Positions 19,693-60,250 of a stretch of DNA of 64,000 nt are shown piece by piece. Source of the stretch: Candidatus Woesearchaeota archaeon (lineage in GTDB: Archaea > Nanobdellota > Nanobdellia > Woesearchaeales > ARS49); contig JASMHM010000001.1 of NCBI GenBank assembly GCA_030750765.1, forward strand, positions 32,541 through 96,540, in the 5' to 3' direction. Numbering within the stretch: the stretch's first letter is position 1; every line of letters starts with the position of its first letter. A program made the position numbers and the translations under genes. A model generated the notes under the pieces. It made no database searches. It saw only the letters and a list, made by a program, of their open reading frames with translations, and was not told the DNA's origin.

Positions 19693-19701
19693 CTTTTATA
19701 T
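19693..19701 (+). promoter_or_regulatory. TATA box for the AbrB-PhoU gene
   Basis: aaggcttttatatc, 25 nt upstream of ATG 19722. Confidence 0.5.
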
Positions 19702-19721
19702 CACGCATCGCTCAACAGAGT

Positions 19722-28062: not shown

Positions 28063-28099
28063 GCAGAAATCGCGCACGTATTGCTATTTAAATGTACCG

Positions 28100-33012: not shown

Positions 33013-33150
33013 TTGTCACTTTTTCTCAAATATGTGCGTTACCACCACAAGTTTGTACCGTCCTTATTCCGTAACAACTTGAAAACGCTATTCTCGTCGA
33101 AACGCTTATAAACACGAACGTCGAAATTCCACTGTTTTGCGAGGGGTACA

Positions 33151-36100
33151 TTGAAGAAGGGGGTTACTGTAGTAGCCATACTACTGATCGGACTACTTGC
33201 GAGTACGTTTTTGATCGGTGGGGAAGGCATAACAGGCTTCATACCTGCAGTTTGGTTAGATGAATCTTTCTACACCACGACGGTAGGTGAGTCAGTACTG
33301 GTGAACATCAGTGACGCTCTTCAGGATGGGGAAAACGCATCCATTAAAGTAGATGTACCGCTCGAAATCAACTATCTCCTCGACGGAGAAAACCTTATTC
33401 TCACACCAACTCATTCTGGGAACTTTGCTGTACGCCTCGCAAAAGCAAACAGCACGGTCACCTTGACGCTCGTCGTCGAGGAGGGCCTCCCAGATCTTTC
33501 TTTACTTCCCGACCTAACAGAAACAGCAGAGCTAGAGCTCATTGACGAGCCAGTCAACCAAACCCTTAATGAGTCCGTGAACGAAACGATACTCAACACT
33601 ACGGTGAACGAATCCCCACCTATCGTCTTAGACTTCCCCAACCTAAGTCTTATTCCAGACTTAACCGAAAACGTAACCGAAGGTCCGGAGGTTGTGCTCA
33701 ACATCTCTAACACGACTATCGCTCCTTCTCCAGTCCCTACCAACGTTACCGGAAGCTCAGATGATGAGATCTTCAACTACAATTTCTTACTCATCCCTAA
33801 AAGCATGCAAGTACGAGACAACCGCATCACAGGAGACGTGGGAAGTCTACGATTCAGAGAACGACAGAACTACACCAACATCCACGCTTGTTTGATCGCA
33901 GAATCCCAAATTATAGGACTAGACAGCGAGCTCTGCCCGCAGATGAACACCTCGGCAGAAATAACGCTATTAGACGTTCCTGGCCCCACCATCCACTACT
34001 CCCACAACGGCAAGGACTTCCTCCTCTGCTCAGGCCTCTCAGATCCCGCATGTACAGACATACGCTATGACGGTCAGAACGTCACATTCAACGTCTCCCA
34101 CTTCACCATCTTCACCGTTCTTAAAGAACCACCTGCTCTAGGAGCAAGCGCGAGCTCGTGCACCGGAACCCCTGACACCCCCACGTGCAATGGCTTCGGA
34201 GATGAGGAAAGCTGTAACGCACAATGTGGTTGTACCTACAACGCAGGGTACTACATGTGTAACGCAGATGTGGACTGTAGTGCGTGTGATAATGACGAGA
34301 CAGGTTGCGACTTCTGGGAACAGATGGTAATGTGCGAATGGGATCCAGGATCTCCAGCACCTGGCTCCACAGCCAACGCCATCCCCACCGCGTCAAAGCC
34401 TGTTCTCAACTCTAGCAATATTGGGAATAACAACACCAACCAGAACCTAACGTTCTACACCACCATAACCGATGATGACACAGGAGACATCCACACCAAC
34501 ATCTCAGTATGGTACATGAATGGCAGTCCAACCGTCCTGTATTACCTGCCCTTTGAGGGCTGGAACCAATCTAAAGAAAACTTCTCCTTTGAGTACGCGT
34601 ACGAGAACCACGCCAACGTCACCAATACAAACTGGCAAAACATCACTGACTCCAAAGTAGGAAGATCGTACTCCATCAACTCTACGGACAACGGAAATTC
34701 ACATATTGCCATGAACAACACCCACACTTCGTTGGCCAATTTCACGGTAGAGCTGTGGGTGAAGCCAGAACTCTTTAAGGCCACAATGTTTACCTCAGCA
34801 TGCGGAGATATAAACTCAGGATGTCAAATAGTAAGCATAAGCAACAATTTTGTCCTTGGCATTGGCTGGGGAATTCCCTTCTGTCAAACCAGTGGTGGGT
34901 CGTACAACATCTTTGCTAATGGATCCTCCAACATTATCGATGGAGGCTGGACACACCTTGCGTGCGTCAACAGGCAAGACCGTCTAGAACTGTATGTGAA
35001 CGGCACATTGGTAGACTCCACACCCCATCGTATTGGAGACACCGAAACCATAGACACTTCAGGCAGCGCGGTGATGATCGGAGCAGACAGAACTGGAGGC
35101 GCAAACCTCTACAACGGAACCGTAGACGAGTTCAGAGTCTGGAATAGGAGTCTTAGTGCCGACATGATCAGTCTCATCTACACCAAGACCAAAGATGGTG
35201 ACAACCTCCACACCATGCACGCCTCGGAAACCCGACCTGGAGAGAACTGGAGCGTCAATCTCACGGTGAACGACTGGAGAATGGACTCTGCATCAAACAT
35301 GTCCAACAACGTACAAATCCAAGGAGACAACAACGTAACCAACACCATAGAGGCCTTTGAGATATTTGTTCTCAACAGTAGTGAGGTCACTCTCAACGGA
35401 ACTGATGAGAACCTTTCCATAATCGTGAACAGCACCAAGAACGACAGCGGAGACCACAGCACCAACATCACAGTATGGTACCTTAACGGATCTCCCATAC
35501 TCCTACACTACCTACCATTTGAGGCCTACAACGAAAGGCAGAGCTTCAAAACGAGAGAGTACGTACGAGGCAGCGAAGCAAACGTCACCAACGCAACCTT
35601 CCTCAACGGATCCGGCAGAGTAGGCAGCGCGTACGCATTCAACACCTCCGACCGTCCCGACCTTCCCAACAACATCTACACCTCCTACATAGCCCTGAAC
35701 AACACTGCACCCGAATTCAGCAACTTCACCATAGACATGTGGGTGAGCAAGCCACAGCCAGACAGTGCAGGCATTGGTGAGACCACCTGCGACGCGACAC
35801 GAAGCGACCCAGACACTGACCCGGTGAAGTACTGCACCATGCTAAGCATTGGAAGCAACATCGAAATGCGAGTCTCCGAAGGATTTGCACAGTGCAGCTG
35901 GTTTACCCAAAACACGCTAAACAGTTCCACATCCATCTCAGGGAAAGACTGGACCCACGTGGCTTGCGTCTACAACCAACTAGGCATGGCCATCTACGTG
36001 AACGGCACAGAAGAAGGCAGCATGAACAGGTCATGTGGAGGCACGGTGACCATCTGCGAGGGCATCGGAGATGAAGAAGGGTGTGACGCCCAGGACGGCT

Positions 36101-39100
36101 GCACATGGAACGAAGCAATATGCGAAGGCGCGGCAACACAATGTGACCAGATGTCTCTAAGCGCTTGTCCCAACCAGCAAGGATGCGCCCAGAACATTTT
36201 CGAATCCTGGACAGCAGAAACCAACAAGAGCCCCATCATCATAGGGGCAGACACTAGCAAGACCAAAGGGTTTAACGGATCCCTAGACCAAGTAAGAATC
36301 TGGAACCGATCATTATCTGTAGACCAGATCTCCCAGATATGGACCGAAGAAAAAGAAGGCAACAGTTTCTACACGCTACGTGCGAACGAAACACAAACCT
36401 TAGACATATGGACAGCCAACGTAACCCCAAACGATGGCGTTCAAGACGGACCAAGCGTGATGCTCAACAGCATCACGATAAACCAGACAGGAGGAGAAGG
36501 AGGCGGACCCCCACCACATGTAGATGAAAAATTACCCCCAAACGTGAGCTATCTCAACGTCAGCATGCCCGACGGCGGCGCACAGCTCAATGTCTTGAAC
36601 ATAACTGTAAACATAACCAGCGAGCACTCCACCAACATCAACGTCAGCGTAGTCCTATTCCAAATAACTCCTCCAAACGGAACCGCAAGCACATACAACG
36701 TAACGGTAGACAACGGCACAGCAACGCACACGTATAACCTGACGTTCAACGTGCCCAACTTCTGGCAGGACGGCCAATACAACGTTAGCGTGTTTGCCAA
36801 CGATACCGCAGATCTGATCAACAACAGCATCTACACAGAGTTCAATATTAACAGCGTGCCAAACGTGAGCTTCCTCACCGTAGGCCAGCCAGACGGTACC
36901 GCACAAGGAAACTTTGTGAACGTAACCGTGAATGTGACCGACAACAACCTACCCTCAAACCTCCAGGTTGACCAAGTACTGATCAACATCACACCACCTA
37001 ATGGTTCTGCATACACCATCAAAGTGGATAACGGAAGCTTTGGAGGAGATGCTTACAACTTAAGCTTCCTAACAACCATCCAAGACGAGCACGGCACCTG
37101 GACAGCTCACGCGATAGCTAACGACACCAACAACAATAGAAACACCACGATAACGCAAACATTCAGCATCACAGACACCACCGCACCTAACGTCACCACG
37201 CTAAGCGTATCCCAGCCAAACGGAACAGGACACAGCGGGTTAGTCAACATCACCGTAAACATCTCGGACAACATTGCAGCAGCAGAAAGAGTAGACAAAG
37301 TGTTTGCAACCATCACACCACCTAACGGTTCAGCAAGCGCTTACAACCTCACCATGAGCAACGGCAGCAACGGAGGGATGACCTTTAACACCACCTTCAT
37401 CATCCCACCTGTTGATGCAGACGGCAACTACACCATCACCGTCTATGCTAATGACACCAGCGATAACGTAAACGACACCATAAGCCTACAATTCCTGGTT
37501 GCCACAGTTCCCAACGTCACCACACCAAGCGTTGTACAACCTAATGGAACTGTATTCAATGGACTCGTGAACATCACCGTCAACGTCTCAGACCAAGCAC
37601 TCGAAACCAACAACCACGTCGATGTTGTCTTAGCACAAATAACACCACCAAACGGCACAGCAAGCAGCTACAACCTCACCATGACCAACGGCAGCAACGG
37701 CGGCATAACCTATAACGTGACCTTCGTCGTACCTTCAGTAGAGGCTGACGGCAACTACACCATCACCTTCCTAGCAAACGACACCGGCGGTAACTTGAAC
37801 GATAGCATCAGCTTCCAGTACCAGCTAGCAATCGTTCCAAACGTCAGCTTCCACAGCATAGTGCAGCCCAACGGCACCGCACACAAAGGACTGATCAATC
37901 TCACTGTGAACGTGTCGGACAACAACCTACCCACGAATAGACACGTAGACCAAGTGCTAGCAAACATCACACCACCAAATGGAAGTGCAAGCGCGTACAC
38001 TCTAGGCATGAGTAATGGAAGCAACGGAGGCACCACATACAACCTAACCTTCATCCTCACCGGAATCGAGGAAGACGGAAACTACACCGTAACCTTCCTA
38101 GCCAACGACACAGGAAACTTCCTCAACAACAGCGAACAGATACAGTTCAGGATAGACACCGTGCCTAACGTCACAGAAGCAAACGTCACCCAGCCAAGCG
38201 GAACAACCGGAGGCAACATGGTCAACGTCACGATAAACGTGACAGATAATCAGCTACCCACCAACCACCACATAGGAGAAGTTCTCGCGAACATCACACC
38301 ACCCAACGGAGCCGTCAACGCATACACCCGAATCATGACCAACGGAAGTAGCGGTGGCATCACCTACAACTACACCTTTGACACAGAAAGCTTTGCCACT
38401 GTAGGAACATGGGAAGTGCAGTTCATAGCTAACGACACCGGCGCCAACGTGAACAGCAGCAACAAAACAAGCTTCCAAGTAACGGCCGCTGCAGACTCAA
38501 CACCGGTTAACGTGAGCACGCTGAATGTGACACAACCAGCAGGACCCGTACAAAACAACATAATAAACATCACAGTCAACGTAACAAGCAGTTCCAGCAG
38601 CAACGACGACGTAGCAGAAGTCATCGCCAACATCACCTACCCCAACGGAAGTAGCTACGAAACCTACATCGACAACGGAACCAACGGAGGAGTACAATAC
38701 AACTACACCTTCCTCACCACCACCCAAGACGAACACGGAGCATGGACCGTAAACATCATAGGAAACGACACAGCAGGAAACGCCAACACCACACTAAGCA
38801 CCACATTCAACGTAACCGACACGCAAGTACCCAATGTAACAACACTAAGCGTAGTCCAACCAAACGGCACAGGACACAACATACTAGTAAACCTCACCGT
38901 AAACGTATCCGACAACATAGCAAGCGCAGAAAGAGTAGACAAAGTATTCGCACAAATCACACCACCAAACGGAAGCGCAAGCTCCTACAATCTCACCATG
39001 AGCAACGGCAGCGACGGCGGAGACACGTTCAACGTAACCTTCTTTGTAGATGACATCCAAGCAAGCGGAAACTACACCGTCACCGTCTACACAAACGACA

Positions 39101-42100
39101 CCTCAGGAAACGTCAACGACACCATAAGCGCACAGTTCAGGGTAGAACTAGTACCTAACGTCACCGAACCAGCAATAACGCAACCTAACGGAACCGCACA
39201 TAATGGATTCATCAACATCACGGTAAACGTGACAGACAACCAACTACCCACGAATAGACACGTTAACGAAGTACTCGCACAGATCACACCACCAAACGGC
39301 TCAGCCAGCAGCTACAATTTGAGCATGGCCAACGACAGTCTAGGGGGAAACACCTACAACTTAACGTTCGTCATCCCTGACATTGACGCAAGCGGAAACT
39401 ACACCGTACTCTTCATCGCCGACGACACAGGAGACAGCGTCAACAACACCATCAGCCTACAATTCCAAGTGGCTACCATCCCTAACGTGACTGAAAAACT
39501 CGTCACGCAACCTAACGGAACCGCACATGGAGGATTCATCAACATCACGGTAAACGTGACAGACAACCAACTACCAACAAATAGACATGTTGACCAAGTA
39601 CTCGCCAGCATCACACCACCTAATGGAAGCGCAAGCCAGTACAACCTCAGCATGAGCAACGGCAGCAATGGAGGAATAACCTACAACCTCACCTTCGTCA
39701 TACCACCAACGGACGCAGACGGAAACTACACCGTAACCTTTGTTGTGAACGACACAGGAGGATTCTACAACAACAGCATAACTACAAGCTTCCGCTTAGA
39801 CATCGCACCTAACGTAACAACACCTGCAGTGACGCAACCAGACACAGTAGTCAGAGGAAGCACCATCAACATCACAGTAAACATCAGCGACCAAGGACTC
39901 GAAACAAACAACCACATAGACGTCGTACTAGCACAAATAACACCACCAAACGGCACCGCAAGCAGCTACAACCTCACCATGACCAACGGCAGTAGTGGCG
40001 GAATAACCTACAACCTAACCTTCGACCTCCCGCCAGAAGATGAGGATGGAAACTACACCGTAACCTTCCTAGCCAACGATACTGGTGGAAATCTCAACAA
40101 CACCATCAGCATACAGTTCAAAAGATCAATAGTGCCAAACGTAAGCTTCCACAGCATAGTACAACCAAACGGAAGCTTGACTAACGGCCTCATCAACATC
40201 ACCGTCAACGTTACAGACAATGCACTACCTACAAACAACCACATAGATGTAGTACTCGCTAACATCACACCACCAAACGGAAGCGCCAGCGCATACACCT
40301 TATCCATGACCAACGGAAGTGATGGCGGCATTACGTACAACCTCACCCTGATCCTTCCAGACCTTTCTGAGGACGGAAACTACACAATCACCTTCCTAGC
40401 CAACGACACAGACAACAATCTAAACAATTCGGAAGGATTGCAATTCAAGAAAGCAGTAGTGCCTAACGCGAGCTTTGCAAACGTTGTCCAGCCAAACGGA
40501 ACCGCACATAACGGAATAATTAACATCACCGTCAACATAACAGACAACAACCTGCCCACGAATAGACACGTAGACCAAGTGCTTGCTAACATCACACCAC
40601 CAAACGGATCTGCAAGCGCCTACACCCTAAGAATGTCTAACGGCAGCGAAGGCGGCAATACGTACAACCTCAGCTTCAGCATCTCCGACATCAGCGAAGA
40701 CGGAAACTACACCGTAACCTTCCTAGCCAACGACACCGGCGGAAACCTCAACAACAGCATCACCACCAGCTTCCGAGTAGACACCGTGCCAAACGTCACC
40801 CAACTCAGCGTCTTGCAGCCTGACGGAACAGGCCAAGGAACCATGGTTAACATCACCGTCAACATAACAGACAACCAGCTCGAAACAAACAGGCACGTAG
40901 ACACCGTACTAGTAAACATCACACCACCAAACGGAAGCGCCAGCGCATACACACTATCCACGACCAACGGCAGTAGTGGAGGAATAACCTACAACCTCAC
41001 CTTTGACGTAGACACTGTAGCAGAACCCGGAACCTACGACATCACCATACTCGCCAATGATACTGGCGGCAACCTCAACAACACCATAACCTCAACCTTC
41101 GAAGTTACCGTCGTAGACACCACACCACCAAACGTCAGCTTCCTAGCCATCGTACAACCTAATGGCACCGCACACAACGGATTGGTAAACGTAACTGTCA
41201 ACGTAACCTCCGAATGGAGTTCTAACGAAAACATCACCAACGTCTTTGCACAAGTCGTTCCACCCAACGGAAGCGCAAGCAGCTACAACCTCACCATGAC
41301 CAACGGAAGTAATGGTGGAATAACCTACAACGTTAGCTTCATCATACCCCTTGTTGACGAAAGCGGCAACTACACAATCACCATCTACGCCAACGACACC
41401 GGCGACGTTGTCAACGATACAATAAGTTCAAACTTCAACGTGGAACTCACACCCAACGTTACCACCCCCACCATCATCCAACCTAACGGCACCGCACACA
41501 ACGGATTCATCAACATCACCGTAAACGTAACAGACAACCAACTACCTACGAACAACTTTGTTGATGTTGTACTCGCTCAGATCACACCACCCAACGGAAG
41601 CGCAAGCAGCTACAACCTCACCATGAACAATGACAGCCTAAGAGGAAACACCTACAACGTAACGTTCTTCGTGGATGACGTTGCAGCGTCTGGAAACTAC
41701 ACCGTACTCTTCCTAGCTAACGACACGTCAGGAAATCTCAACAACACCATCAGCCTACAATTCCAAGTGGCTACCATCCCTAACGTGACTGAAAAACTCG
41801 TCACCCAACCAAACGGCACAGCACATGGAGGATTCATCAACATCACGGTAAACGTGACAGACAACCAACTACCCACCAACAGACACGTAGACCAAGTACT
41901 CGCCAACATCACACCACCCAACGGAAGCGAAAGCGCCTACACACTCAGTATGAACAACGACAGTCTTGGCGGCAACACCTACAACCTAACCTTCATCATC
42001 CCCGCAACTGACGCAGACGGAAACTACACAGTAACCTTCCTAGCCAACGATAGTGGAAACTTCCTCAACAACACCATCACCACAAGCTTCCGAGTAGACA

Positions 42101-45100: not shown

Positions 45101-48100
45101 ACGCCACCGACGATATAGGCGTGAGCGCAGTCCTAGCCGAAATACAATTCCCCAACAACGGAAGCAGCTTCAACCTCACACTCGTCAATCACACCGCAGT
45201 AGACTACAACATCACCTACACCCCCGGATTAGTAGATATGTATGGAGAATACAACGTAACCATCATAGCAAACGACACCAACGAAAACATCAACAACAGC
45301 ATTAGAACGAACTTCACCGTTACAGACCTCACCGAACCAACAGTCACCAACCTCAACATTAGTAACTCCACGGGCGATGCTGGAACCGCATTCAACATTA
45401 GCGTTAACATAACAGACAACATCAACGACACGAGCAGAGTAGACAAAGTGTTTGCCAACGTCACATTCAGAAACGGCAGCAACCAACTCTTCACCATGAG
45501 CTTGCACAGTGGCGTCAGGTACAATGTGACCTTCACACCTGAAGCATCTGCACCCGGAGGCGTGTACAACGTCACCATCCTAGCTAACGACACCAGTGAC
45601 AACCTCAACGACACCATCAAGCTCAACTTTACGGTTGCAGCCACGCCACACGTTGCAGAGACACAGCCACCAAACGTCAGCCAAACCAACACAACCGCAC
45701 TACCCGCCAGCTCTCAAAACGGCACCACCTTCACCATCACCACTAACGTAACAGACAACAACATCACCAACATAGTCCTAGCCAACATCACCTACCCCAA
45801 CAGCTCCAGCTTCCTAATCACACTCATCAACCACACAAGCGTAGACTACAACCAAACATACAAACACCCACCCGAAGACGCAACAGGAACCTACAACATC
45901 ACCATCATAGCCAACGACACCACCGACAACACCAACAACAGCATCAGCACCAACTTCACCATAACACAAGCACACACCGTAGACACCCAACCACCAAACG
46001 TCAGCCAAACCAACACCACGGCGACTGACAACTCACAAGTCCAAGGAAGCACCTTCACGATAACAACGAATGTGACAGACAACAACATCACCAACATAGT
46101 CCTAGCCAACATCACCTACCCCAATGAGAGCAGCTTCGTGATAACGCTCGTGAACCACACCGCAGTAGACTACAACAACACATACACGCACCCATATTAT
46201 GACGGACACGGCACGTACAACGTCACCATCATAGCCAACGACACCACCGACAACACCAACAACAGCATCAGCACCAACTTCACCGTCACTAAGAGAGTGC
46301 CTGCCATAAACTACACCACACCAACACTAGGCAATGCCACCCAAGTCAACATTAACTACGCCGAGGTCAACATCAGCATAGATGAGCCACAACTCCAACA
46401 AGTCAACTTCAACTGGAACAATACAAACTTCAGCATGTACAATGACTCTCTAGTCCTAATGATGAACTTTGACAACGTTAGCTCAATCGGAGACAACATC
46501 ACAAACTCAATTGACCTCAGCAGATACGGCAATAACGGAACACTTGAAGGAAACGCACAATACAACTGCACCTCACCCAGGTACGGATGTTCTACTAAAT
46601 TCGACGGGGACAATGACGCAATAGATGTCGGCAATGACAAGAGTCTAGACCTAGGGACTTCGTTTACCCTATCCGCCTGGGTGTACGTGTTCAGCCACGA
46701 TCCTGATTACTCATTCCTTATCACAAAGGATGCAGGCAGCGCGGCCAGTGGAAGCTACGACCTCGGATTCAAGAATAGCAAACCATACATTGCCATCTCG
46801 GACGGCGGCTGGGCAGAGTACGTCGCCGACGCCCCACTACCGCTCAACACATGGCAGCACATTGTTGGAGTAAGAGATAGCGGAAATAACTTGCATATTT
46901 ATGTTGACAGTGTTCTGAACAAGACTTTCGCAGGCGTGAAAACTCCTCAGACCATTACCACCCCGGTCGTTATTGGAGTGAGAGACGATAATGCTTACGA
47001 TTATGACGGATTGATAGACGAAGTTCGCATCTGGAACAGATCACTCAGCGAAGACGAAGTCACGTTCATGTACGAGTCCAACCTACGCAAAGTAAACGGC
47101 TCCCACTGGGAAGTATGGGTTAACCGAACCGGTCTTCCTGACACGGCCTACAACTTTTCTGCAGGCGTTACAGACACGTCAGGAAATATAAACACCACAG
47201 AAGAAAGATTGATAAACATTTCAGTAGGCGCGCTCCACATCGCAGACGCCCAGCCACCAAACGTCAGCCAAGACAACACAACCGTAACACCCGTCAGCGG
47301 AGATAATGGTACCACCTTCCGAATCGACACTAACGTGACAGACAACAACCAAACAGCCCTGATAGTGGATAGAGTCCTGGCAAACATCACCTACCCCAAT
47401 ACCAGCAGTTTCCTACTGGAACTATTCAACGGAACCGGCACGGATTACAACAACACATACGAACATCCAATCGAGGACGCAACGGGCGTGTACAACGTCA
47501 CCATCATAGCCAACGACACCACAAACAACGTAAACAGAAGCATCAGCACCAACTTCACCATTAATCTTGCGCACGTAGGCGACACACAACCTCCAAATGT
47601 GACTAACGTAAACGCCACACCTGAAAATGGCACTCAAGGACAAATATTTACCATTTACGCGAACGTTACTGACAACAATGTCACCAACATAGTGATTGCT
47701 AACATCACCTTCCCCAACCGAAGCAGCTTCACAATAACCCTAGCAAACCGCACTATCGTAGACTACAACAACACCTACGAACACGCGTACTACGACGCCG
47801 CGGGTTTGTACAACATCACCATCATAGCCAACGACACCACCGACAACACCAACAACAGCATCAGTGCTAACTTCACCGTGCTCAAACGCCCACCAAGCGC
47901 GATCTACACCTCGCCAACACGGGATAATAACACACAAATAAGTAGAAACTTCACAGAAATTAACATCAGCCTAGAAGAACCCAAACTTGCGAATGTAACC
48001 TTCACCTGGAATAGTACCCCATACGTACTGTACAACGAGTCCTTACAGCTATTGTTGAATTTCGACAACCGCTCCCAAATAGGAGAAAACCAAACAAGAA

Positions 48101-51100
48101 TGGTTGACATCAGCAACAAAGGCAACAACGGTTCATGTGCCACCACCACCTGCCCCACCCTAAACGGAAGCGCAGGAAAGTACGGAGGAGCCTACGAATT
48201 TGACGGAGACAATGACTTCATAGACGTCGGCACAGATGCTAGCCTCTTCTCAGACGTCTTCACTGCGGCAGTATGGATCTACCCACATGCCTACGAAAAT
48301 GGCCACGACAGAATTATACAACAAGGAACAGCAGGTGATGGTGATGGAGGAGGATGGGGAATCGAATGGGATGCTGCAGCAGATTCAGGACAAGACAGAG
48401 CATACGGAGTCATATGGAACGGAGGGTCATCCACAAGAGCAGCGCCCGCCGGAACCATGGCATTGGACACCTGGCACCACGTCACCCTAGCATATGACGG
48501 AGGCAGCAATAGTGCAACACTCTATGTGAACGGTGAACAAGACGGCACCGCAACATCTGCAATGACCAGACCATCAACCATCAACTTTGCAGTAGGAAAG
48601 CGACCAGGCGGCGCTAACAATTTCAACGGACGAATAGAACAGGTCCAGCTATGGAACAAGACATTCAACGCAGAAGAGGTACGAGCACTCTACGAATCTA
48701 ACCTGCAAAGAATGAACGAAACGCACTGGGAACTATGGATAAACCGAACAGAACTCAGCAACTCCACATACAACTACAGCGTAGAAGTACAGGACGCCTC
48801 TGGAAACGCAAACGACTCAGGCCGAAGACTCATCACCCTAGCAGGAACAATAGCAGATACCCAAGCACCAAACGTGACAAGCGTGAACGTCACCCCTGAA
48901 AATGGCAGCCAAGGAACCACCTTCAGAATCCAAGCGAACGTAACCGACAACAACGGAACCGACATAGTGCTGGCCAACATCACCTACCCCAACGCAAGCT
49001 CCTTCACCATCCCACTAGTGAACGAAACAGGAGTTGAGTACAACAACACCGTAACCTTCACCATCAACGACGTAGAAGGACTATACAACATCACCATCAT
49101 AGCCAACGACACCTTAGACAACGTCAACAACACAGTAACGACAAACTTCACCGTAACAGACCTCACCACCCCAACGGTTATCGCAGAAAACGTAACCCCT
49201 GGAGTAGATGGAACTAACTCACCCTACAACATAAGCGTGAATGTCACCGACAACATAGCATCTGCAGAACGCGTGGACACCGTGCTTGCCAATGTTACTT
49301 ACGTCAACGGAAGCACAAACCTACTTACTATGACCAACGGAACAAACACCACGTTTAACGTTTCCTTGACCCTAGACACCACCGCACCTGTTGGCGTGTA
49401 CAACATAACCTTCATAGCAAACGACACCAGTAACAATATCAACAACACAATACGTACAAACTTCACCATCAACAGCACGTCAGGATTGGCAGATGCGCCA
49501 GATGACACAGACACATCAGGATACATCATCGAAGGCGATGTTAACGCGACCATCAACATTACCAAAGACTATCCAGTAGATCAGTTCGTGAACTTTACAG
49601 ATGACACCCTCGGACTAAGACTACGGCTGAAGGCACTGTTCTCCCAAGGTCCAGTGAACTTCAGCAAGCTCATCATTGAAGCAGACGGCACCAACACCGC
49701 CATAAACACAACAGGAATCACAGGCGTTGATCCCGTACACTTCGTCGTCCTACCCAACACACTCGCCGAAGGATTGTTCGTCTGTCCACAAGCACAAACA
49801 TTAGAAGAAGTGACCACCGATTGTGCAAACATCACCATCTTCACCTACCAAGAAGCAGTACAAGGAACCATCAAGAACGGTTACAACGTAAGCTTGCTTG
49901 GAAACTTCCTCATCGGAAACATGACCGGAAGCGGAGCAGGAGAAGGAGATCTTACCCTACCAAACGTGACCGCAAACGTCACCCCTATCAGCGGAGCCCA
50001 AGCAAATGCGTTCACCATCCTCGCCAACGTCACAGACGACAACAACGTAAGCACCGTGCTAGCAAACATCACCTACCCCAACGGAAGTAGCTTCACCCTG
50101 ACCTTGGTTAACCACACTAACGTAGAATTCAACAACACATATACTCCTGCCTTGACAGACGCCACAGGAAGGTACAACGTCACCATACTTGCCAATGACT
50201 CAAGCGACAACGTCAACAACACAGTAACGACAAACTTCACCGTGACAGATGCTTCACTACCTGGACTTACCAACCTCAGCCCAAGCGGAGTGGCCTTCAA
50301 CCAACGACAAGACATCAACATCACAGCCAACGTGACGGACAACACCAACGTTAGCGTAGTCAGAGCCAACATCACTCAGCCAGCAGGCGATTCAGTAATC
50401 GTAACACTCATACAAAGCAGCACAGACATCTTCAACGCAACCTACGCAGACGCCGACCAACTAGGCAACTACACATTGCAATACCTAGCAAACGACACCT
50501 CTGACAACGTGAACGACAGCAGCATCATCTACTTCCGGGTTAATGACAGCCACGCGCCAAACGTCACCAGCGTTGCCAGCGCCCCCACGACAGGAGACCA
50601 AGGCGCCACCTTCAACATCAGTGCAGTCGTGATAGACAACGCAAACATTAGCCAAGTCTTTATGAACATCACCGGACCCGGTACAGGCGTCTACCTCCAG
50701 ATGAGAAATGTTTCGTCCACCTACAATGAGCTTTTCAACACCACCACAAGCACCGCTGCAGGAATCTGGACCGCGACAATCTACGCAAACGACACCTCAG
50801 GACTCATCAACCGCACAGCCAGCGCCACCTTCACGGTCACCGAACCAAGCACCACCACCCCAACAACAGGAGGAGCGGGCGGAAGTAGTGGAGGCGGCGG
50901 AGGCAGAAGTATCGTTCCACAGCCAGAGCCAGTAGCACCAACGTTCCCAGCAGCAGTGCTCCCAGAGCTACCCATACCATCACTCCCAGAGCCAACCGGC
51001 GGAGCAGTCTCCCCACCCGAGCTGCCAAACGTCACCGTACCCGCAGGTCCAGGAAAACCAACCGAAGAGCCAACAATGACCCCCGTACCTGAACAAGACA

Positions 51101-53091
51101 AGATACCAGCAGCCTTCCTCCTCGTACTGCTGCTCATCATCTGCGCTCTCCTTGCAGGAATCTACTACAAGAAACGCACCCGCCAGCCAATTACGAAGCA
51201 GAAAGTCACCCAGGACGCCAGAGGCATCAGACTACAAAGAATGCTCTCCTACCTAGCCAAGAAAGCCGCTAGCGAGACTGCAAGCGCAGCCCACGCACTC
51301 ACCCTACGACTCCGCAGAACCCGCCCTGTAAGCGGAATCATCAGCATTGCCAAGCTAATTTCCTTCTGGCGCAAGCCAACACCAGGCCAAGTCAAGGCAA
51401 GACTTGCCACCCTCGAACACGAAGCCAAGAGCATCCACAAAGAGAACCTCGGAAGCCTCTCAGATAAGATCAAACATCTCGAAGAGAGCGCACTCTCCAC
51501 TATCAAGAGTACTGCTGGAACACTCAAGGAAAGAGCACCCACACTCAAGAAGCACGTCACCCAACTAGAAAGGGAAGAAGAGAAGAGCATCAAACACGAA
51601 GCAAAAGACCTCAGACAAGATCTAGCCCAAGCAGAACGCGAGGAAGAGCACGTCAAGACCAAGATCAGTCAAGCATCCAAGACAGAAGACCTGCGAGAAA
51701 AGGCCAAACACCTCATCAGTCTCGAGTTCAGCCTCAGACCACTCAAGGCCCGCGTAGAAAGGATCAAAGAACGAATCCATGACATCCACATCCACAAAGA
51801 TAGCGTGCTAGCCCAGCGCTTCGAGATCATGGAGATGAGCATCCAACACCTCGAGCACCGCTTCAAAGATCGTGCAGAAGCAGCAGTGGAAGCAGGCGCC
51901 ACCGAGGGAATCGAACTCTCAGAAGCGGGCGTGGACGCCATCAAGCACACACTCTACTGGGCGTTACAACACGCCACCGCAGCAGGCAGAGTAGGCATCC
52001 AGACAGCCGGCAAGGGAATAGGAAAGGTAGAAAGAGCAGGCAAGGCAGGCGTCACGCTCAGCGCCACTGCAGCAAGCGCAGCAGCAAAAACAACAGCGAT
52101 GGCCTTGCACAAGGGCCTCACCAGCATCGAACACGCAGCAGTAGGAGGCGCAGCACTCAGCGCGGCAGCTGCAAAAACAACAGCAAGAGTTCTTGGAAAG
52201 GGCACCTCCACCTTGGAACACGCAGCAATCGGCGGAGTAGCACTAAGCGCAGGAGCAGCCGCCACATTAGTCAACGCACTCGCCCACTACGCACGCGCAC
52301 TAGAACAGCGAAGTGTGAACCGCGCCACCCAAGAAATCAAGAGCTTGACCAACGAAATCAGAGAGGCAGAACAAGAGCTCATCAGCAACATCAAGCAAGC
52401 AGTCAAAGAAATAGCCACAGAGCTCACCACATTCGAAAGGCGTACGATAAAGACAGCAAAGGATGAAGTCAAAGAGGTCAAGGAAGGCGCAAGAGATCTT
52501 GAGCACCAAGAAGTCAGCACCATCAAGCAGGAATCCCACGAGCTAGCCAGAGAACTGTCCAGCATCGAACGTGGCTCCATCGCACAGGTACAAGCTAAAC
52601 TGCACCACATCAAGGACGACCTCCACCAGAAGGAAAGAAGCGCAGTAACCCTAGCTGGCCACGTCATCCATGACATCATGCACAAAATCACGCTAGCGGA
52701 AGCTAGCCATGTCAACGCCATCGAGACCAGAATTGACAGGGTCCGCACCAAGATCTCGCTAATGCGTGCTCGCCACGACGAGTTCGACACACGCATCAAA
52801 TCACTAGACTTCAGCATCGCCCGATTCAAGGAAGAAGAGAAGGAACTCGGCCAGTACATCACCAAAGTCAGACGTAGAGTCAACAAGCTCCCAGACATCA
52901 CATCACACTCACTTTTGGATGAGGAGATTGCACAGATCAAGGCTACCCTAGCCACGATCAAAGCGCACCCAGCGCGAACCAATGTGCACAATCTCTCAAT
53001 CACGCAGGTGGACAAACGCCTGCGAGAAATCATCCAAGAGCTCACTCTCCCAAGAGGTAACACCTCTCGCAAAACACCGCCGCACCAATGA
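33151..53091 (+). CDS. Giant (6,646 aa) sequon-dense surface protein: pilin-like signal, 5 LamG-like modules, about 34 Ig-like repeats, Pro-rich stalk, one TM helix, 640-aa coiled-coil cytoplasmic tail
   Basis: A single uninterrupted ORF with a TTG start and GAGGGG 8 nt upstream. N-terminus (M)KKG/VTVVAILLIGLLASTFL. LamG-type signatures: VDEFRVWNRSLS, LDQVRIWNRSLS, IDEVRIWNRTLS, IDEVRIWNRSLS, IEQVQLWNKTFN. The repeat consensus is PNVT..V.QPNGTAHNG.INITVNVTDN.LPTN.HVD.VLA.ITPPNGSAS.Y.L.M.NGS.GG.TYN.TF....DGNYT.TFLANDT. TM helix IPAAFLLVLLLIICALLAGIYY, followed by KKRTRQ. Confidence 0.9.
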   Translation: MKKGVTVVAILLIGLLASTFLIGGEGITGFIPAVWLDESFYTTTVGESVLVNISDALQDGENASIKVDVPLEINYLLDGENLILTPTHSGNFAVRLAKANSTVTLTLVVEEGLPDLSLLPDLTETAELELIDEPVNQTLNESVNETILNTTVNESPPIVLDFPNLSLIPDLTENVTEGPEVVLNISNTTIAPSPVPTNVTGSSDDEIFNYNFLLIPKSMQVRDNRITGDVGSLRFRERQNYTNIHACLIAESQIIGLDSELCPQMNTSAEITLLDVPGPTIHYSHNGKDFLLCSGLSDPACTDIRYDGQNVTFNVSHFTIFTVLKEPPALGASASSCTGTPDTPTCNGFGDEESCNAQCGCTYNAGYYMCNADVDCSACDNDETGCDFWEQMVMCEWDPGSPAPGSTANAIPTASKPVLNSSNIGNNNTNQNLTFYTTITDDDTGDIHTNISVWYMNGSPTVLYYLPFEGWNQSKENFSFEYAYENHANVTNTNWQNITDSKVGRSYSINSTDNGNSHIAMNNTHTSLANFTVELWVKPELFKATMFTSACGDINSGCQIVSISNNFVLGIGWGIPFCQTSGGSYNIFANGSSNIIDGGWTHLACVNRQDRLELYVNGTLVDSTPHRIGDTETIDTSGSAVMIGADRTGGANLYNGTVDEFRVWNRSLSADMISLIYTKTKDGDNLHTMHASETRPGENWSVNLTVNDWRMDSASNMSNNVQIQGDNNVTNTIEAFEIFVLNSSEVTLNGTDENLSIIVNSTKNDSGDHSTNITVWYLNGSPILLHYLPFEAYNERQSFKTREYVRGSEANVTNATFLNGSGRVGSAYAFNTSDRPDLPNNIYTSYIALNNTAPEFSNFTIDMWVSKPQPDSAGIGETTCDATRSDPDTDPVKYCTMLSIGSNIEMRVSEGFAQCSWFTQNTLNSSTSISGKDWTHVACVYNQLGMAIYVNGTEEGSMNRSCGGTVTICEGIGDEEGCDAQDGCTWNEAICEGAATQCDQMSLSACPNQQGCAQNIFESWTAETNKSPIIIGADTSKTKGFNGSLDQVRIWNRSLSVDQISQIWTEEKEGNSFYTLRANETQTLDIWTANVTPNDGVQDGPSVMLNSITINQTGGEGGGPPPHVDEKLPPNVSYLNVSMPDGGAQLNVLNITVNITSEHSTNINVSVVLFQITPPNGTASTYNVTVDNGTATHTYNLTFNVPNFWQDGQYNVSVFANDTADLINNSIYTEFNINSVPNVSFLTVGQPDGTAQGNFVNVTVNVTDNNLPSNLQVDQVLINITPPNGSAYTIKVDNGSFGGDAYNLSFLTTIQDEHGTWTAHAIANDTNNNRNTTITQTFSITDTTAPNVTTLSVSQPNGTGHSGLVNITVNISDNIAAAERVDKVFATITPPNGSASAYNLTMSNGSNGGMTFNTTFIIPPVDADGNYTITVYANDTSDNVNDTISLQFLVATVPNVTTPSVVQPNGTVFNGLVNITVNVSDQALETNNHVDVVLAQITPPNGTASSYNLTMTNGSNGGITYNVTFVVPSVEADGNYTITFLANDTGGNLNDSISFQYQLAIVPNVSFHSIVQPNGTAHKGLINLTVNVSDNNLPTNRHVDQVLANITPPNGSASAYTLGMSNGSNGGTTYNLTFILTGIEEDGNYTVTFLANDTGNFLNNSEQIQFRIDTVPNVTEANVTQPSGTTGGNMVNVTINVTDNQLPTNHHIGEVLANITPPNGAVNAYTRIMTNGSSGGITYNYTFDTESFATVGTWEVQFIANDTGANVNSSNKTSFQVTAAADSTPVNVSTLNVTQPAGPVQNNIINITVNVTSSSSSNDDVAEVIANITYPNGSSYETYIDNGTNGGVQYNYTFLTTTQDEHGAWTVNIIGNDTAGNANTTLSTTFNVTDTQVPNVTTLSVVQPNGTGHNILVNLTVNVSDNIASAERVDKVFAQITPPNGSASSYNLTMSNGSDGGDTFNVTFFVDDIQASGNYTVTVYTNDTSGNVNDTISAQFRVELVPNVTEPAITQPNGTAHNGFINITVNVTDNQLPTNRHVNEVLAQITPPNGSASSYNLSMANDSLGGNTYNLTFVIPDIDASGNYTVLFIADDTGDSVNNTISLQFQVATIPNVTEKLVTQPNGTAHGGFINITVNVTDNQLPTNRHVDQVLASITPPNGSASQYNLSMSNGSNGGITYNLTFVIPPTDADGNYTVTFVVNDTGGFYNNSITTSFRLDIAPNVTTPAVTQPDTVVRGSTINITVNISDQGLETNNHIDVVLAQITPPNGTASSYNLTMTNGSSGGITYNLTFDLPPEDEDGNYTVTFLANDTGGNLNNTISIQFKRSIVPNVSFHSIVQPNGSLTNGLINITVNVTDNALPTNNHIDVVLANITPPNGSASAYTLSMTNGSDGGITYNLTLILPDLSEDGNYTITFLANDTDNNLNNSEGLQFKKAVVPNASFANVVQPNGTAHNGIINITVNITDNNLPTNRHVDQVLANITPPNGSASAYTLRMSNGSEGGNTYNLSFSISDISEDGNYTVTFLANDTGGNLNNSITTSFRVDTVPNVTQLSVLQPDGTGQGTMVNITVNITDNQLETNRHVDTVLVNITPPNGSASAYTLSTTNGSSGGITYNLTFDVDTVAEPGTYDITILANDTGGNLNNTITSTFEVTVVDTTPPNVSFLAIVQPNGTAHNGLVNVTVNVTSEWSSNENITNVFAQVVPPNGSASSYNLTMTNGSNGGITYNVSFIIPLVDESGNYTITIYANDTGDVVNDTISSNFNVELTPNVTTPTIIQPNGTAHNGFINITVNVTDNQLPTNNFVDVVLAQITPPNGSASSYNLTMNNDSLRGNTYNVTFFVDDVAASGNYTVLFLANDTSGNLNNTISLQFQVATIPNVTEKLVTQPNGTAHGGFINITVNVTDNQLPTNRHVDQVLANITPPNGSESAYTLSMNNDSLGGNTYNLTFIIPATDADGNYTVTFLANDSGNFLNNTITTSFRVDIAPNVTTPAVTQPDTVVRGSTINITVNISDQGLETNNHIDVVLAQITPPNGTASSYNYTMTNGSNGGITYNLTFDLPPEDADGNYTITFLANDTGGNLNNTISLQFKRSIVPNVSFHSITQPNGSIAGGLVNITVNVTDNSLPTNQHIDVVLANITAPNGSASAYTLTTANDSNGGTTYNVTLIIPSIYEDGNYTVTFLANDTDNNLNNTEGLQFQIATVPNVSFHAVDQPSGTSHNGLINLTVNVTDNSLPTNRYVDVVLANITPPNGSDYAYTLTMTNGSNGGTTYNISFIFPGIKEDGNYTITFLANDTGGNLNNSEQIQFRLATVPNVSFINITQPTGSERGRVVNITVNVTDNSLPTNHHIAVVLANITPPNGSDSSYTLTMTNGSDGGDVYNVSFIIPSFYGEGTYNITILANDTADNRNNSVTANWTITKRPPSINYTSPTLASDTSTNSNFTEVNITLNEPSLANLTFNWNGTDFTMYNDSLSLIMNFGNRSSIGESETTIADVSHYGNNGTCSGTTCPIVNSSGRYGTALNFDGSNDYVAFDNELAADYPFTVSLWFRRKASKDQALIQIHDGSSLSTEAFRMYITSTDVLRAAVRDGGSTLGIAEATKTTQQDVWHHATGVFASQTDRRVFLDGENKGTNTASAGPPVGINMTFIGQLRNTVWNYNGLIDEVRIWNRTLSDKEVKMLYESDLQKINSTDWKLWVNRTNLPVATYNHSAEAQDTSGNTNSTIIRTMTVTLAAIDAIPPNVSFLSIVQPNTTSHNGLINITVNVTSESETNVNISQVLAQITPPNGTGYNLSMANDSLGGLTYNATFIIDDVAASGNYTVVIIANDTAKNINLTVQSSFRVDLVPNVTQLSVLQPDGTKQGNLVNVTVNVTDNQLETNRHVDVVLLNITPPNGSVNAYTVVMTNGSNGGITYNVSFITLNKETLGTYRVQVLANDTGGNLNTTTNTTYEIITADAAAPNISQDNTTVNPLSAAQGTEFTIYTNATDDIGVSAVLAEIQFPNNGSSFNLTLVNHTAVDYNITYTPGLVDMYGEYNVTIIANDTNENINNSIRTNFTVTDLTEPTVTNLNISNSTGDAGTAFNISVNITDNINDTSRVDKVFANVTFRNGSNQLFTMSLHSGVRYNVTFTPEASAPGGVYNVTILANDTSDNLNDTIKLNFTVAATPHVAETQPPNVSQTNTTALPASSQNGTTFTITTNVTDNNITNIVLANITYPNSSSFLITLINHTSVDYNQTYKHPPEDATGTYNITIIANDTTDNTNNSISTNFTITQAHTVDTQPPNVSQTNTTATDNSQVQGSTFTITTNVTDNNITNIVLANITYPNESSFVITLVNHTAVDYNNTYTHPYYDGHGTYNVTIIANDTTDNTNNSISTNFTVTKRVPAINYTTPTLGNATQVNINYAEVNISIDEPQLQQVNFNWNNTNFSMYNDSLVLMMNFDNVSSIGDNITNSIDLSRYGNNGTLEGNAQYNCTSPRYGCSTKFDGDNDAIDVGNDKSLDLGTSFTLSAWVYVFSHDPDYSFLITKDAGSAASGSYDLGFKNSKPYIAISDGGWAEYVADAPLPLNTWQHIVGVRDSGNNLHIYVDSVLNKTFAGVKTPQTITTPVVIGVRDDNAYDYDGLIDEVRIWNRSLSEDEVTFMYESNLRKVNGSHWEVWVNRTGLPDTAYNFSAGVTDTSGNINTTEERLINISVGALHIADAQPPNVSQDNTTVTPVSGDNGTTFRIDTNVTDNNQTALIVDRVLANITYPNTSSFLLELFNGTGTDYNNTYEHPIEDATGVYNVTIIANDTTNNVNRSISTNFTINLAHVGDTQPPNVTNVNATPENGTQGQIFTIYANVTDNNVTNIVIANITFPNRSSFTITLANRTIVDYNNTYEHAYYDAAGLYNITIIANDTTDNTNNSISANFTVLKRPPSAIYTSPTRDNNTQISRNFTEINISLEEPKLANVTFTWNSTPYVLYNESLQLLLNFDNRSQIGENQTRMVDISNKGNNGSCATTTCPTLNGSAGKYGGAYEFDGDNDFIDVGTDASLFSDVFTAAVWIYPHAYENGHDRIIQQGTAGDGDGGGWGIEWDAAADSGQDRAYGVIWNGGSSTRAAPAGTMALDTWHHVTLAYDGGSNSATLYVNGEQDGTATSAMTRPSTINFAVGKRPGGANNFNGRIEQVQLWNKTFNAEEVRALYESNLQRMNETHWELWINRTELSNSTYNYSVEVQDASGNANDSGRRLITLAGTIADTQAPNVTSVNVTPENGSQGTTFRIQANVTDNNGTDIVLANITYPNASSFTIPLVNETGVEYNNTVTFTINDVEGLYNITIIANDTLDNVNNTVTTNFTVTDLTTPTVIAENVTPGVDGTNSPYNISVNVTDNIASAERVDTVLANVTYVNGSTNLLTMTNGTNTTFNVSLTLDTTAPVGVYNITFIANDTSNNINNTIRTNFTINSTSGLADAPDDTDTSGYIIEGDVNATINITKDYPVDQFVNFTDDTLGLRLRLKALFSQGPVNFSKLIIEADGTNTAINTTGITGVDPVHFVVLPNTLAEGLFVCPQAQTLEEVTTDCANITIFTYQEAVQGTIKNGYNVSLLGNFLIGNMTGSGAGEGDLTLPNVTANVTPISGAQANAFTILANVTDDNNVSTVLANITYPNGSSFTLTLVNHTNVEFNNTYTPALTDATGRYNVTILANDSSDNVNNTVTTNFTVTDASLPGLTNLSPSGVAFNQRQDINITANVTDNTNVSVVRANITQPAGDSVIVTLIQSSTDIFNATYADADQLGNYTLQYLANDTSDNVNDSSIIYFRVNDSHAPNVTSVASAPTTGDQGATFNISAVVIDNANISQVFMNITGPGTGVYLQMRNVSSTYNELFNTTTSTAAGIWTATIYANDTSGLINRTASATFTVTEPSTTTPTTGGAGGSSGGGGGRSIVPQPEPVAPTFPAAVLPELPIPSLPEPTGGAVSPPELPNVTVPAGPGKPTEEPTMTPVPEQDKIPAAFLLVLLLIICALLAGIYYKKRTRQPITKQKVTQDARGIRLQRMLSYLAKKAASETASAAHALTLRLRRTRPVSGIISIAKLISFWRKPTPGQVKARLATLEHEAKSIHKENLGSLSDKIKHLEESALSTIKSTAGTLKERAPTLKKHVTQLEREEEKSIKHEAKDLRQDLAQAEREEEHVKTKISQASKTEDLREKAKHLISLEFSLRPLKARVERIKERIHDIHIHKDSVLAQRFEIMEMSIQHLEHRFKDRAEAAVEAGATEGIELSEAGVDAIKHTLYWALQHATAAGRVGIQTAGKGIGKVERAGKAGVTLSATAASAAAKTTAMALHKGLTSIEHAAVGGAALSAAAAKTTARVLGKGTSTLEHAAIGGVALSAGAAATLVNALAHYARALEQRSVNRATQEIKSLTNEIREAEQELISNIKQAVKEIATELTTFERRTIKTAKDEVKEVKEGARDLEHQEVSTIKQESHELARELSSIERGSIAQVQAKLHHIKDDLHQKERSAVTLAGHVIHDIMHKITLAEASHVNAIETRIDRVRTKISLMRARHDEFDTRIKSLDFSIARFKEEEKELGQYITKVRRRVNKLPDITSHSLLDEEIAQIKATLATIKAHPARTNVHNLSITQVDKRLREIIQELTLPRGNTSRKTPPHQ
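39460..40176 (+). repeat. Near-identical segmental duplication, copy A (717 nt)
   Basis: It matches 41758..42474 at a constant offset of 2298 nt. It includes an exact run of more than 45 nt (caattccaagtggctaccatccctaacgtgactgaaaaactcgtcac). Confidence 0.8.
41758..42474 (+). repeat. Near-identical segmental duplication, copy B
   Basis: See copy A. Both ends align (caattccaag at 39460/41758; ggaagc at 40171/42469). Confidence 0.8.
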
Positions 53092-53167
53092 AGGTATTGG
53101 GAGTACCGGAGGCCGGCACTTTTCTTATCACAGCACCATGACGAATCTACGGAAAACGTTCACAAGG

Positions 53168-53175
53168 CTTTAAAG
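53168..53175 (+). promoter_or_regulatory. TATA box
   Basis: caaggctttaaag, about 26 nt upstream of ATG 53197. Confidence 0.5.
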
Positions 53176-60116: not shown

Positions 60117-60250
60117 CAAATGACCGAAAATCGAGCAAAATATAAGGATGGCCAAGACCGAATCACCACTCTCCAAGAGCGAAATACCGAAACATTTATA
60201 TACTAAAACAGCTCTTTTCATATTACAACAACGACTTCTGAGGCAACACT

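Follow-up and report, generated by a model that had tools for sequence, protein, structure and literature searches.

A giant LamG- and Ig-like-domain surface protein of a marine Woesearchaeota archaeon, probably an adhesin fiber with a predicted N-glycan coat

Marine Woesearchaeota are abundant and uncultivated, and the case for their presumed symbiosis is drawn largely from their reduced genomes and from surface proteins of the kind described here. The window, by which we mean the whole 64,000-nucleotide stretch of contig JASMHM010000001.1 that was analyzed, holds one open reading frame (ORF) for a giant protein with LamG and Ig-like modules. What would such a protein do, for which a small DPANN genome spends 20 to 25 kb on one surface fiber? 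We consider it rather probable, on its sequence features, that the giant protein is a long, stiff, putatively N-glycan-coated adhesin fiber, anchored in the membrane, with its tip and LamG modules facing a partner surface. Giant LamG/Ig surface glycoproteins of DPANN archaea are already known, and the window protein adds a member to them, not a new kind of system. What goes beyond the ordinary is the position-conserved density of its N-x-S/T sequons, a 640-aa helical tail free of ATPase, a 7-unit cassette with a 14-unit length difference, and the large uncurated family to which its repeat unit belongs.

A single gene for a modular giant protein

The giant gene occupies 33151..53091 of the window on the forward (+) strand, which is also the strand of all features below unless (-) is given. 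It is a single uninterrupted ORF with a TTG start, 6,646 codons, and a sole stop at its end. Its start at window position 33151 is the one chosen elsewhere by independent gene callers (locus position 11063). The encoded protein of 6,646 aa has a mass of ~714 kDa without glycans and a pI of ~4.5. An earlier note on this DNA had described an ORF of this extent with a Cys-rich acidic region, two LamG modules (the second with a Cys-rich insert), 21 tandem Ig-like units, three blocks each led by a further LamG module and holding 2 to 6 units, a unique insert of ~150 aa, three more units, a Pro/Thr/Gly stalk, one transmembrane (TM) helix, and a long tail. This plan was borne out part by part, and no internal stop was found.

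Using a hidden Markov model (HMM) of the repeat unit, we found 34 units of 97 to 113 aa in the giant protein, with 21 in tandem followed by groups of 6, 2, 2, and 3. The tandem array of 21 FN3/Ig-like units (107 to 113 aa each) spans aa 1130-3421 (36538..43413) and has a TRF period of 327. Units 22-27 (six; aa 3740-4382, 44368..46296), units 28-29 (two; aa 4703-4912, 47257..47886), and units 30-31 (two; aa 5240-5443, 48868..49479) come next, each group behind a LamG module. They are followed by a unique insert of 160 aa with 2 Cys (aa 5444-5603, 49480..49959), which is not matched by the unit HMM and has no match in Pfam or NCBIfam. The three membrane-proximal units 32-34 (aa 5604-5899, 49960..50847) and a Thr/Gly/Pro-rich stalk (aa 5900-5984, 50848..51102) then lead to the TM helix.

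The genes around the giant gene include archaeal housekeeping genes, with TFB directly upstream and TIM, AMP phosphorylase, ribosomal protein S3Ae, and AspRS also present. Identical or at least 90%-identical TFB and AMP phosphorylase proteins carry the NCBI name Candidatus Woesearchaeota archaeon. The organism belongs to the marine Candidatus Woesearchaeota (DPANN), in agreement with the archaeal host proposed earlier.

Sequons, topology, and fold of the units

The ectodomain contains 493 N-x-S/T sequons (8.3 per 100 aa), compared with 155.6±10.1 expected from 500 composition-preserving shuffles (z=33). Each unit carries 8 to 13 of them. Unit 10 is the unit in which 11 sequons had been read before, and it has the same sequons in the same order. 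In an alignment of the units, sequons recur in ten columns in at least half of the units; for eight of these columns the figure is at least 27 of the 34. The 640-aa tail, on the other side of the membrane helix, has 2 sequons only, both in its last 35 residues. The single TM helix itself (aa 5985-6006, 51103..51168; hydropathy up to 2.9) is followed by KKRTRQ, in line with the positive-inside rule.

The sequon asymmetry and the positive residues past the TM helix are strong indirect evidence that the ectodomain, that is, the first ~5,980 aa, lies outside the cell and the tail in the cytoplasm, and that selection maintains dense predicted N-glycosylation. The layout fits a type-I (bitopic), heavily N-glycosylated surface protein. 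The earlier expectation of heavy glycosylation thus stands as far as the sequons go, in their excess, their conserved positions, and their restriction to the extracellular side; the glycans themselves remain a prediction.

We modeled the unit by AlphaFold2 with an alignment made of the 34 paralogous units, and obtained a seven-strand beta-sandwich with a mean predicted local distance difference test score (pLDDT) of 85. A Foldseek search of this model against PDB returned FN3 domains and the MG2 domain of alpha-2-macroglobulin, and lower down the BIg domain of SiiE (TM-score 0.59), with overall TM-scores of 0.6 to 0.7. As modeled, the unit is an FN3/Ig-like beta-sandwich, and the label 'Ig-like' used before is right in the broad sense. 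In Pfam, the units gave MG2, Big_3_3, Big_13, and PKD as cumulative weak matches, implying that no curated family exists for the unit itself.

N-terminal signal, head, and LamG modules

The first 24 aa (33151..33222) form a signal or signal anchor, LKKG-VTVVAILLIGLLASTFLIGG, with hydropathy >2 at aa 3-10. Its pattern of K-K-G followed by 20 hydrophobic residues, called 'pilin-like' in the earlier note, would suit a class III signal, a Sec signal, or a signal anchor equally. An N-terminal K-[KR]-G motif is present in some members of the unit family, not in most, and the C-terminal TM helix of the giant protein is atypical for pilins. Just past the signal lies an ITGF motif (aa 27-30, 33229-33240). 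Among 107 family members, 18 have the pattern [IL]-T-G-x-[AVI] just behind the hydrophobic core (e.g., P0119, P0122, P0126, P0145, P0146, P0153, and P0161), and this [IL]TG motif may mark a conserved site of processing or maturation.

The distal head (aa 25-462, 33223..34536) consists of an acidic, sequon-rich part and then a Cys-rich part, with 14 Cys in aa 247-395, and has no match in Pfam, NCBIfam, or PDB. The motif GxGDEExCxAQxGC(T)(Y/W)N occurs twice in the giant protein, once in the head (aa 348-361, 34192-34233) and once in the insert of LamG-2 (aa 971-984, 36061-36102). Judged by this motif, a small disulfide-rich module, itself without a family match, looks to have been duplicated into the LamG loop.

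Pfam Laminin_G_3 (PF13385) scored above its gathering threshold in both halves of the giant protein (E=1.2e-33 and 2.9e-70), and we positioned five LamG cores by a local HMM. LamG-1, a ConA-like jelly roll, covers aa 463-698 (34537..35244) and matched PDB 4qvs, an S-layer-domain protein, at E=8e-5. LamG-2 covers aa 785-1085 (35503..36405) and includes a Cys-rich insert of ~70 aa with 10 Cys. The other three lie between groups of units: LamG-3 at 43414..44367 (core aa 3476-3702, 43576-44256), LamG-4 at 46297..47256 (core aa 4437-4665, 46459-47145), and LamG-5 at 47887..48867 (core aa 4968-5204, 48052-48762). On both sides of each of these three, the ends of the unit profile match over short stretches (for LamG-3, aa 3425-3449 and 3695-3733), which suggests that each is nested within an Ig-like domain. 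By sequence, LamG-3 is closest to 'LamG domain-containing proteins' from Micrarchaeia, Pacearchaeota, and Patescibacteria, with 31-37% identity, and all of these matches are at most 750 aa long. By the Pfam and local HMM matches, the LamG modules are genuine.

The cytoplasmic tail

The predicted cytoplasmic tail of 640 aa (51169..53088) is basic and rich in Ala, Glu, Lys, and Leu. The autocorrelation of its hydrophobic residues peaks at 7, 14, 22, and 44 residues, and two Ala/Gly-rich repeats of 29 aa are found at 52078-52259. Its structure model is nearly all helix, with four helices of 70 to 110 residues, a pLDDT of 56, and a predicted TM-score (pTM) of 0.29.

We found no significant relative of the tail in Pfam, NCBIfam, or PDB, only sub-threshold matches to SMC-type coiled-coil arms. 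No Walker A or B motif is present in it, and no ATPase family matched it in Pfam at E<=10 or in NCBIfam. Likewise, no tail homolog was found by phmmer among 149 family giants or by tblastn among 20 related loci. A search of the protein index returned no match, not even the tail itself, a weak negative, as this index seems to be without giant proteins.

An adhesin fiber as the probable function

For such an adhesin, we infer glycosylation, fiber geometry, ligand binding, and tail function as follows. The N-terminal signal would export an acidic ectodomain of ~5,950 aa, built like beads on a string from 34 FN3/Ig-like domains (48 in the long allele described below). At 3.5 to 4 nm per domain, the fiber would be ~130 to 200 nm long, and 8 to 13 N-glycans on almost every domain may stiffen it and protect it from proteases. 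The Cys-rich head and two LamG modules would form the distal tip, with three more LamG modules in the membrane-proximal third, and the LamG modules could bind glycans or glycoproteins of a partner cell or particle. The Pro/Thr/Gly stalk and one TM helix would anchor the fiber. The 640-aa coiled-coil tail might oligomerize or cluster the protein or tie it to cytoplasmic structures, and so make the single TM helix load-bearing. The array would evolve as a 7-unit cassette is duplicated, undergoes gene conversion, and probably also crosses over unequally, giving length alleles in one population. With this architecture, the Cys-rich head and LamG tip would offer a handle on partner cells or glycans of marine Woesearchaeota.

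Several points weigh against an adhesin of this kind. To our knowledge, ConA-like folds are not always lectins. We also know of no host for marine Woesearchaeota; 'host attachment' is extrapolated from other DPANN lineages. The head, the 160-aa insert, and the tail have no recognizable homologs, so the roles given to them are guesses, and the global confidence of the tail model is low. Further, family searches among the window genes found no gene for a pilus, prepilin peptidase, secretion, a type IV secretion system (T4SS), or AglB or other glycosylation.

The extreme and even density of glycan sites over the whole fiber would also be expected of a mainly protective or structural glycocalyx or envelope component. 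Such a hydrated, protease-resistant 'brush' would shield against viruses, grazers, or aggregation instead of attaching to a specific host, and the targets of its LamG modules would be glycans or the S-layer of the cell itself. We regard this explanation as unlikely. A monomer of at least 714 kDa with a distal Cys-rich head and lectin-like modules at its tip is adhesin-like, not lattice-like, although the layout of signal, Thr/Pro stalk, and C-terminal TM helix recalls the membrane-anchored S-layer glycoproteins of archaea, and LamG-1 weakly matches the structure of an 'S-layer domain-containing protein'. Weaker matches to the unit family also occur in metagenome-assembled genomes (MAGs) labeled Methanosarcinales, Thermoplasmata, and Methanomassiliicoccales, which are not episymbionts; yet the fast divergence of module order between sister lineages and the copy-number variation, both described below, are typical of interaction proteins. 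NCBIfam gave no PGF-CTERM/archaeosortase signal, which also speaks against a brush.

In the S-layer glycoproteins of Halobacterium and Haloferax, a signal peptide precedes an acidic, N-glycosylated ectodomain, and the stalk beside the C-terminal TM helix is rich in Thr and Pro. The window protein shares with them the signal, an acidic sequon-rich ectodomain, and a Thr/Pro-rich stalk next to the TM helix, but it is ~8 times larger and would form a modular fiber, not a lattice. Sorting by the PGF-CTERM/S-layer route was considered and rejected, given the absence of an NCBIfam PGF-CTERM match and a TM helix that lies 640 aa from the C-terminus; a tail of this length after the helix is incompatible with that route.

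Comparison with known giant surface proteins

LamG/ConA-like and Ig/PKD surface proteins are a DPANN hallmark with a predicted role in host attachment (PMC5498576, PMC7414124). DPANN LamG surface proteins are of the arCOG07813 type and have been described in Mia14, Undinarchaeales, and Nanohalococcus (PMC5498576, PMC7414124, PMC10266531). The window protein has the features by which such proteins are recognized, namely Laminin_G_3 domains, an N-terminal signal or anchor, and a DPANN host; in both cases the Laminin_G_3 modules, often several, sit on secreted or membrane-bound proteins. Compared with the proteins of these three papers, it is much larger, and its LamG modules are embedded in an FN3-like fiber of 34 to 48 units with a TM anchor and a long tail. 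By analogy, an adhesion role is supported by its agreement with the predictions made for DPANN LamG/Ig proteins (PMC5498576, PMC7414124, PMC10266531).

Of the systems described so far, the giant membrane-anchored proteins of Nanohaloarchaeota come closest to the window protein. They combine a Sec signal and ~75 Ig-like domains with a TM helix, behind which lie a cytoplasmic VirB4/TraG-like ATPase and a coiled coil (PMC10266531). They include SPEARE from Ca. Nanohaloarchaeum antarcticus, SVXNc_0300 (9,409 aa), and BNXNv_0298 (8,880 aa); a second VirB4/TraG gene lies downstream, a secretion 'straw' has been proposed, and the cultivated cells are attached to their hosts (PMC10266531). Much of this description applies to the window protein. 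Both are the largest gene product of a small DPANN genome, with an acidic ectodomain, an N-terminal signal, a long array of Ig/FN-like domains of ~100 aa, one TM helix after the array, and a cytoplasmic part with a predicted coiled coil. Both also differ between strains by blocks of Ig-like domains, of 529 aa in nanohaloarchaea and ~1,530 aa in the window protein.

This shared plan of signal, long Ig-like array, TM helix, and cytoplasmic part ending in a coiled coil, as in SVXNc_0300/SPEARE (PMC10266531), would allow a device that binds the host and also serves as a T4SS-like conduit or invasion apparatus powered by VirB4/TraG ATPases. We consider such a device very improbable here. The window tail has no Walker A/B motif or ATPase family match, and the downstream gene, which apparently has its own promoter, encodes no P-loop and no VirB4/TraG-like ATPase. 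The N-terminal WD40/PQQ beta-propellers of SPEARE-type proteins had no Pfam match in aa 1-3400 of the window protein, and no T4SS gene was found among the window genes. Membership in the SPEARE/T4SS group was therefore rejected for lack of an ATPase in the tail or downstream gene and of the beta-propellers. Additional differences from SPEARE-type proteins are the five LamG modules, the extreme N-x-S/T density, a tail without detectable homology, and a host of another phylum, a Woesearchaeota archaeon from marine, non-hypersaline water. By analogy, the window protein probably works like the adhesive part of a SPEARE-type protein. A DPANN 'giant surface protein' theme thus exists without the VirB4 ATPase, and this calls for caution in generalizing the nanohaloarchaeal secretion-'straw' model.

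The giant adhesins of bacteria, such as Salmonella SiiE with 53 BIg domains and the Mobiluncus mulieris adhesin of 7,651 aa with 51 Ig-like domains (PMC6272769, PMC10619420), offer another comparison. They share with the window protein a rod of dozens of Ig-like domains, the position of largest member of the proteome, and binding elements at or near the distal end, and the window protein likely acts in a similar way, as a long reach-out adhesin. The anchoring differs, being of the archaeal Sec type and bitopic in the window protein, whereas the bacterial adhesins use the type I secretion system (T1SS) with outer-membrane retention or a sortase that links them to the cell wall. Stabilization would differ as well, presumably by N-glycans in the former and by Ca2+ sites or intramolecular cross-links in the latter. 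The two have no sequence homology beyond the fold, as seen in the SiiE match above. No RTX/T1SS family matched the window protein in Pfam, and it ends in a TM helix and the 640-aa tail, so it does not belong to the SiiE/LapA type.

Length alleles and the 7-unit cassette

The locus recurs in many marine metagenome assemblies, including TARA Oceans, with flanks that are 99.98% identical. The window comes from MAG GCA_030752535.1. Sister assemblies give longer forms of the gene, of 8,175 aa (GCA_030750235.1, JGI 3300035100) and 8,180 aa (GCA_030754535.1, ERZ27245248). In two further samples the gene is present as 5' and 3' fragments, of 4,615+3,607 aa and 5,822+2,399 aa, and each pair amounts to ~8,175 aa assuming an overlap of 47 aa (k=141). 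A 15-nt in-frame indel at 38167-38181 is present in the window and in the 8,180-aa allele and absent from the 8,175-aa allele.

We compared the window with the 5' and 3' parts of the long alleles, on either side of a middle of ~4.8 kb (units ~21-34). Up to 42176 no base differs between the window and the long alleles. The next stretch, to 42348, shows 14 differences, after which the two are identical for 159 nt and then show 80 differences over 42508-43012; on the 3' side they are collinear from 43197 at latest. The window thus departs from the long allele within units 18/19 and meets it again ~1,530 aa further on, which leaves it 14 units short. By mismatch mapping, the junction lies in the interval 42177..42508. 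When the middle of the 8,175-aa allele was sought with LamG-3, one distant locus was found among the metagenome contigs and none among the genome contigs.

The array has a higher-order period of 7 units, or 2,298 nt, as seen from the spacing of exact repeats and from a DNA identity matrix. Units 9-13 are 76-91% identical in DNA to units 16-20, and other pairs ~60-70%. With a period of 7 units and a difference of 14, the window lacks exactly two super-repeats, in phase and in frame. Additionally, at 39936-39960 in unit 11 the window has the bases of unit 4 (37638-37662) at five clustered positions where it differs from the long alleles L002 and L003. This is a short gene-conversion tract between same-phase units 2,298 nt apart, within one population.

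Such a difference raises the question of whether the 6,646-aa length is an assembly artifact, with a true gene of 8,175/8,180 aa and 35 tandem units, from which the assembler dropped two super-repeats by jumping from units 18/19 to 32/33. We give this explanation serious weight, at somewhat less than an even chance. The long form is given or implied by the four other assemblies with near-identical flanks, and the short form was found only in the MAG of the window (plus one similar, unspecified place). The junction falls inside the repeat array, and the contigs of other assemblies break at units 4, 11, 25, and 32, which share the phase of unit 18, so this unit type is hard to assemble. The observations from which we infer that the short allele may be real point the other way. 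The longest exact repeat within the gene of the window is 67 nt, which argues against an assembler jump, and MEGAHIT k141 contigs run unbroken through the long allele, which makes exact repeats of at least 141 nt between units 18 and 32 unlikely. The deletion, of exactly 14 units, preserves both frame and phase, as homologous unequal crossing-over would give, and gene conversion between same-phase units is seen in the population. The 5' half of the window is 99.97-99.99% identical to TARA and Logan contigs; these end before the junction and are neutral on a collapse.

A collapsed assembly had been named in the earlier note as what would undo its reading. The window allele is indeed 14 units shorter than in four other assemblies, while neither form has a broken reading frame. 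Such an artifact would concern length and copy number alone and is compatible with an adhesin function, as module types and frame are the same either way; if anything, the giant gene is larger than 6,646 aa. The interpretation put forward in that note, which extended to glycan or host-surface binding by lectin-like LamG modules and to an attachment organelle of an episymbiont, is, as a whole, partly supported; lectin activity, host binding, and the organelle are predictions.

A more speculative proposal, which we think doubtful, joins the cassette to the tail. In this proposal the 7-unit cassette is a device for length variation, with unequal crossing-over and gene conversion among same-phase units giving coexisting alleles (21 versus 35 tandem units, ~50 nm) in one otherwise clonal population, and the helical tail is an integrin-like oligomerizing coupler without a VirB4-type motor. 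If it were true, variable fiber length would tune the reach to different partners or aid in evading viruses, and the tail would couple adhesion outside the cell to an intracellular structure, a mechanism distinct from that of SPEARE proteins. The length polymorphism could be traced through ocean metagenomes by long reads. It also holds a lesson for annotation, since the gene is reported at 6,646, 8,175, or 8,180 aa in MAGs of one population and is broken in many assemblies.

The unit family and an ortholog

We searched the unit profile exhaustively against 1.84 billion cluster representatives and found 2,404 proteins at E<=1e-3, of which 198 reach E<=1e-30; many are giants of 2,000 to 6,856 aa. 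The sequon-studded FN3-like unit thereby defines a family of >2,400 protein clusters without a curated Pfam model. No member is more than ~37% identical to the window protein over long stretches. All 44 complete-looking members share a common plan, in which the units stand between a hydrophobic segment at the N-terminus and a single TM helix on the C-terminal side, and the tail behind this helix is charged and has almost no sequons. They carry 3 to 8 sequons per 100 aa outside, and their tails measure from <25 to 551 aa (median 130), so that the 640-aa tail of the window protein is the longest among the members compared. LamG modules were also found in only ~7 of the top 149 members. Most of the named members and genome loci belong to Woesearchaeota MAGs, which come from marine sites, groundwater, and sediment; the profile scan of genome contigs for the family used 10 close units. 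The top profile match, P0101 (6,856 aa, 47 units), was considered as a candidate long allele and rejected as a different protein, with at most 33% identity.

An ortholog from ARS49, a marine sister lineage, lies at the same place downstream of TFB (locus L014, NYZT01000039.1, 2202-6602), with TIM-TFB-giant gene synteny. Its DNA is ~81% identical over the 5' region, and the N-terminal signal is kept. The repeat units are reached earlier and the modules stand in another order; the contig stops after 1,467 aa. This change of module order despite shared synteny implies that the architecture is remodeled quickly between close relatives.

Expression signals, composition, and neighboring genes

A TATA-box-like TTATAAA, noted by eye, lies at 33106..33112, ~40 nt upstream of the start of the giant gene, and a Shine-Dalgarno-like GAGGGG at 33141-33146. 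An oligo-T stretch, TTTTCTT (53120..53126), follows 29 nt past the stop and is likely an archaeal terminator. Also seen by eye is a TATA-like CTTTAAAG box at 53168-53175 that belongs to the next gene. With an upstream box of its own, oligo-T behind its stop, and a separate CTTTAAAG box for the next gene, the giant gene is probably monocistronic.

The coding strand of the giant gene (34000-53000) is strongly A- and C-rich, with an AT skew of +0.35 to +0.45 and a GC skew of -0.2 to -0.3. AAC accounts for 679 of the 785 Asn codons, and ACC and ACA are used heavily for Thr. A foreign origin of the gene was considered and rejected, as these Asn and Thr codons account for the strand skew. Two antisense ORFs within the gene, 45216-45692 and 52287-53072, are probably spurious.

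Directly downstream, an ORF at 53197-56025 encodes a protein of 942 aa that is 100% conserved across assemblies. This protein has no match in Pfam, NCBIfam, or PDB and no P-loop. By eye and with no tool support, it has motifs that we take to resemble the 3'-5' exonuclease domain of family-B DNA polymerases (PolB; FLDIEIP; YNAPFDF; IDLY...LPNKKLDTV; YLESD), and it could be a PolB-like protein that has diverged strongly or been inactivated.

About half of the window ORFs of at least 150 aa are without a Pfam or NCBIfam match, for example 2838-4538(-), 19161-20525(+), 27172-28077(-), 29043-29717(+), 29978-30571(+), 56710-57255(+), and 59121-60221(-). A high share of such ORFs is typical of DPANN 'dark matter'. 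Elsewhere in the window, ARAGORN calls a tRNA-Thr(GGT) at 14438-14512 (+), which scores below the Rfam tRNA gathering threshold, unlike the other two tRNAs of the window. This could mean an archaeal tRNA of atypical form or a false call.

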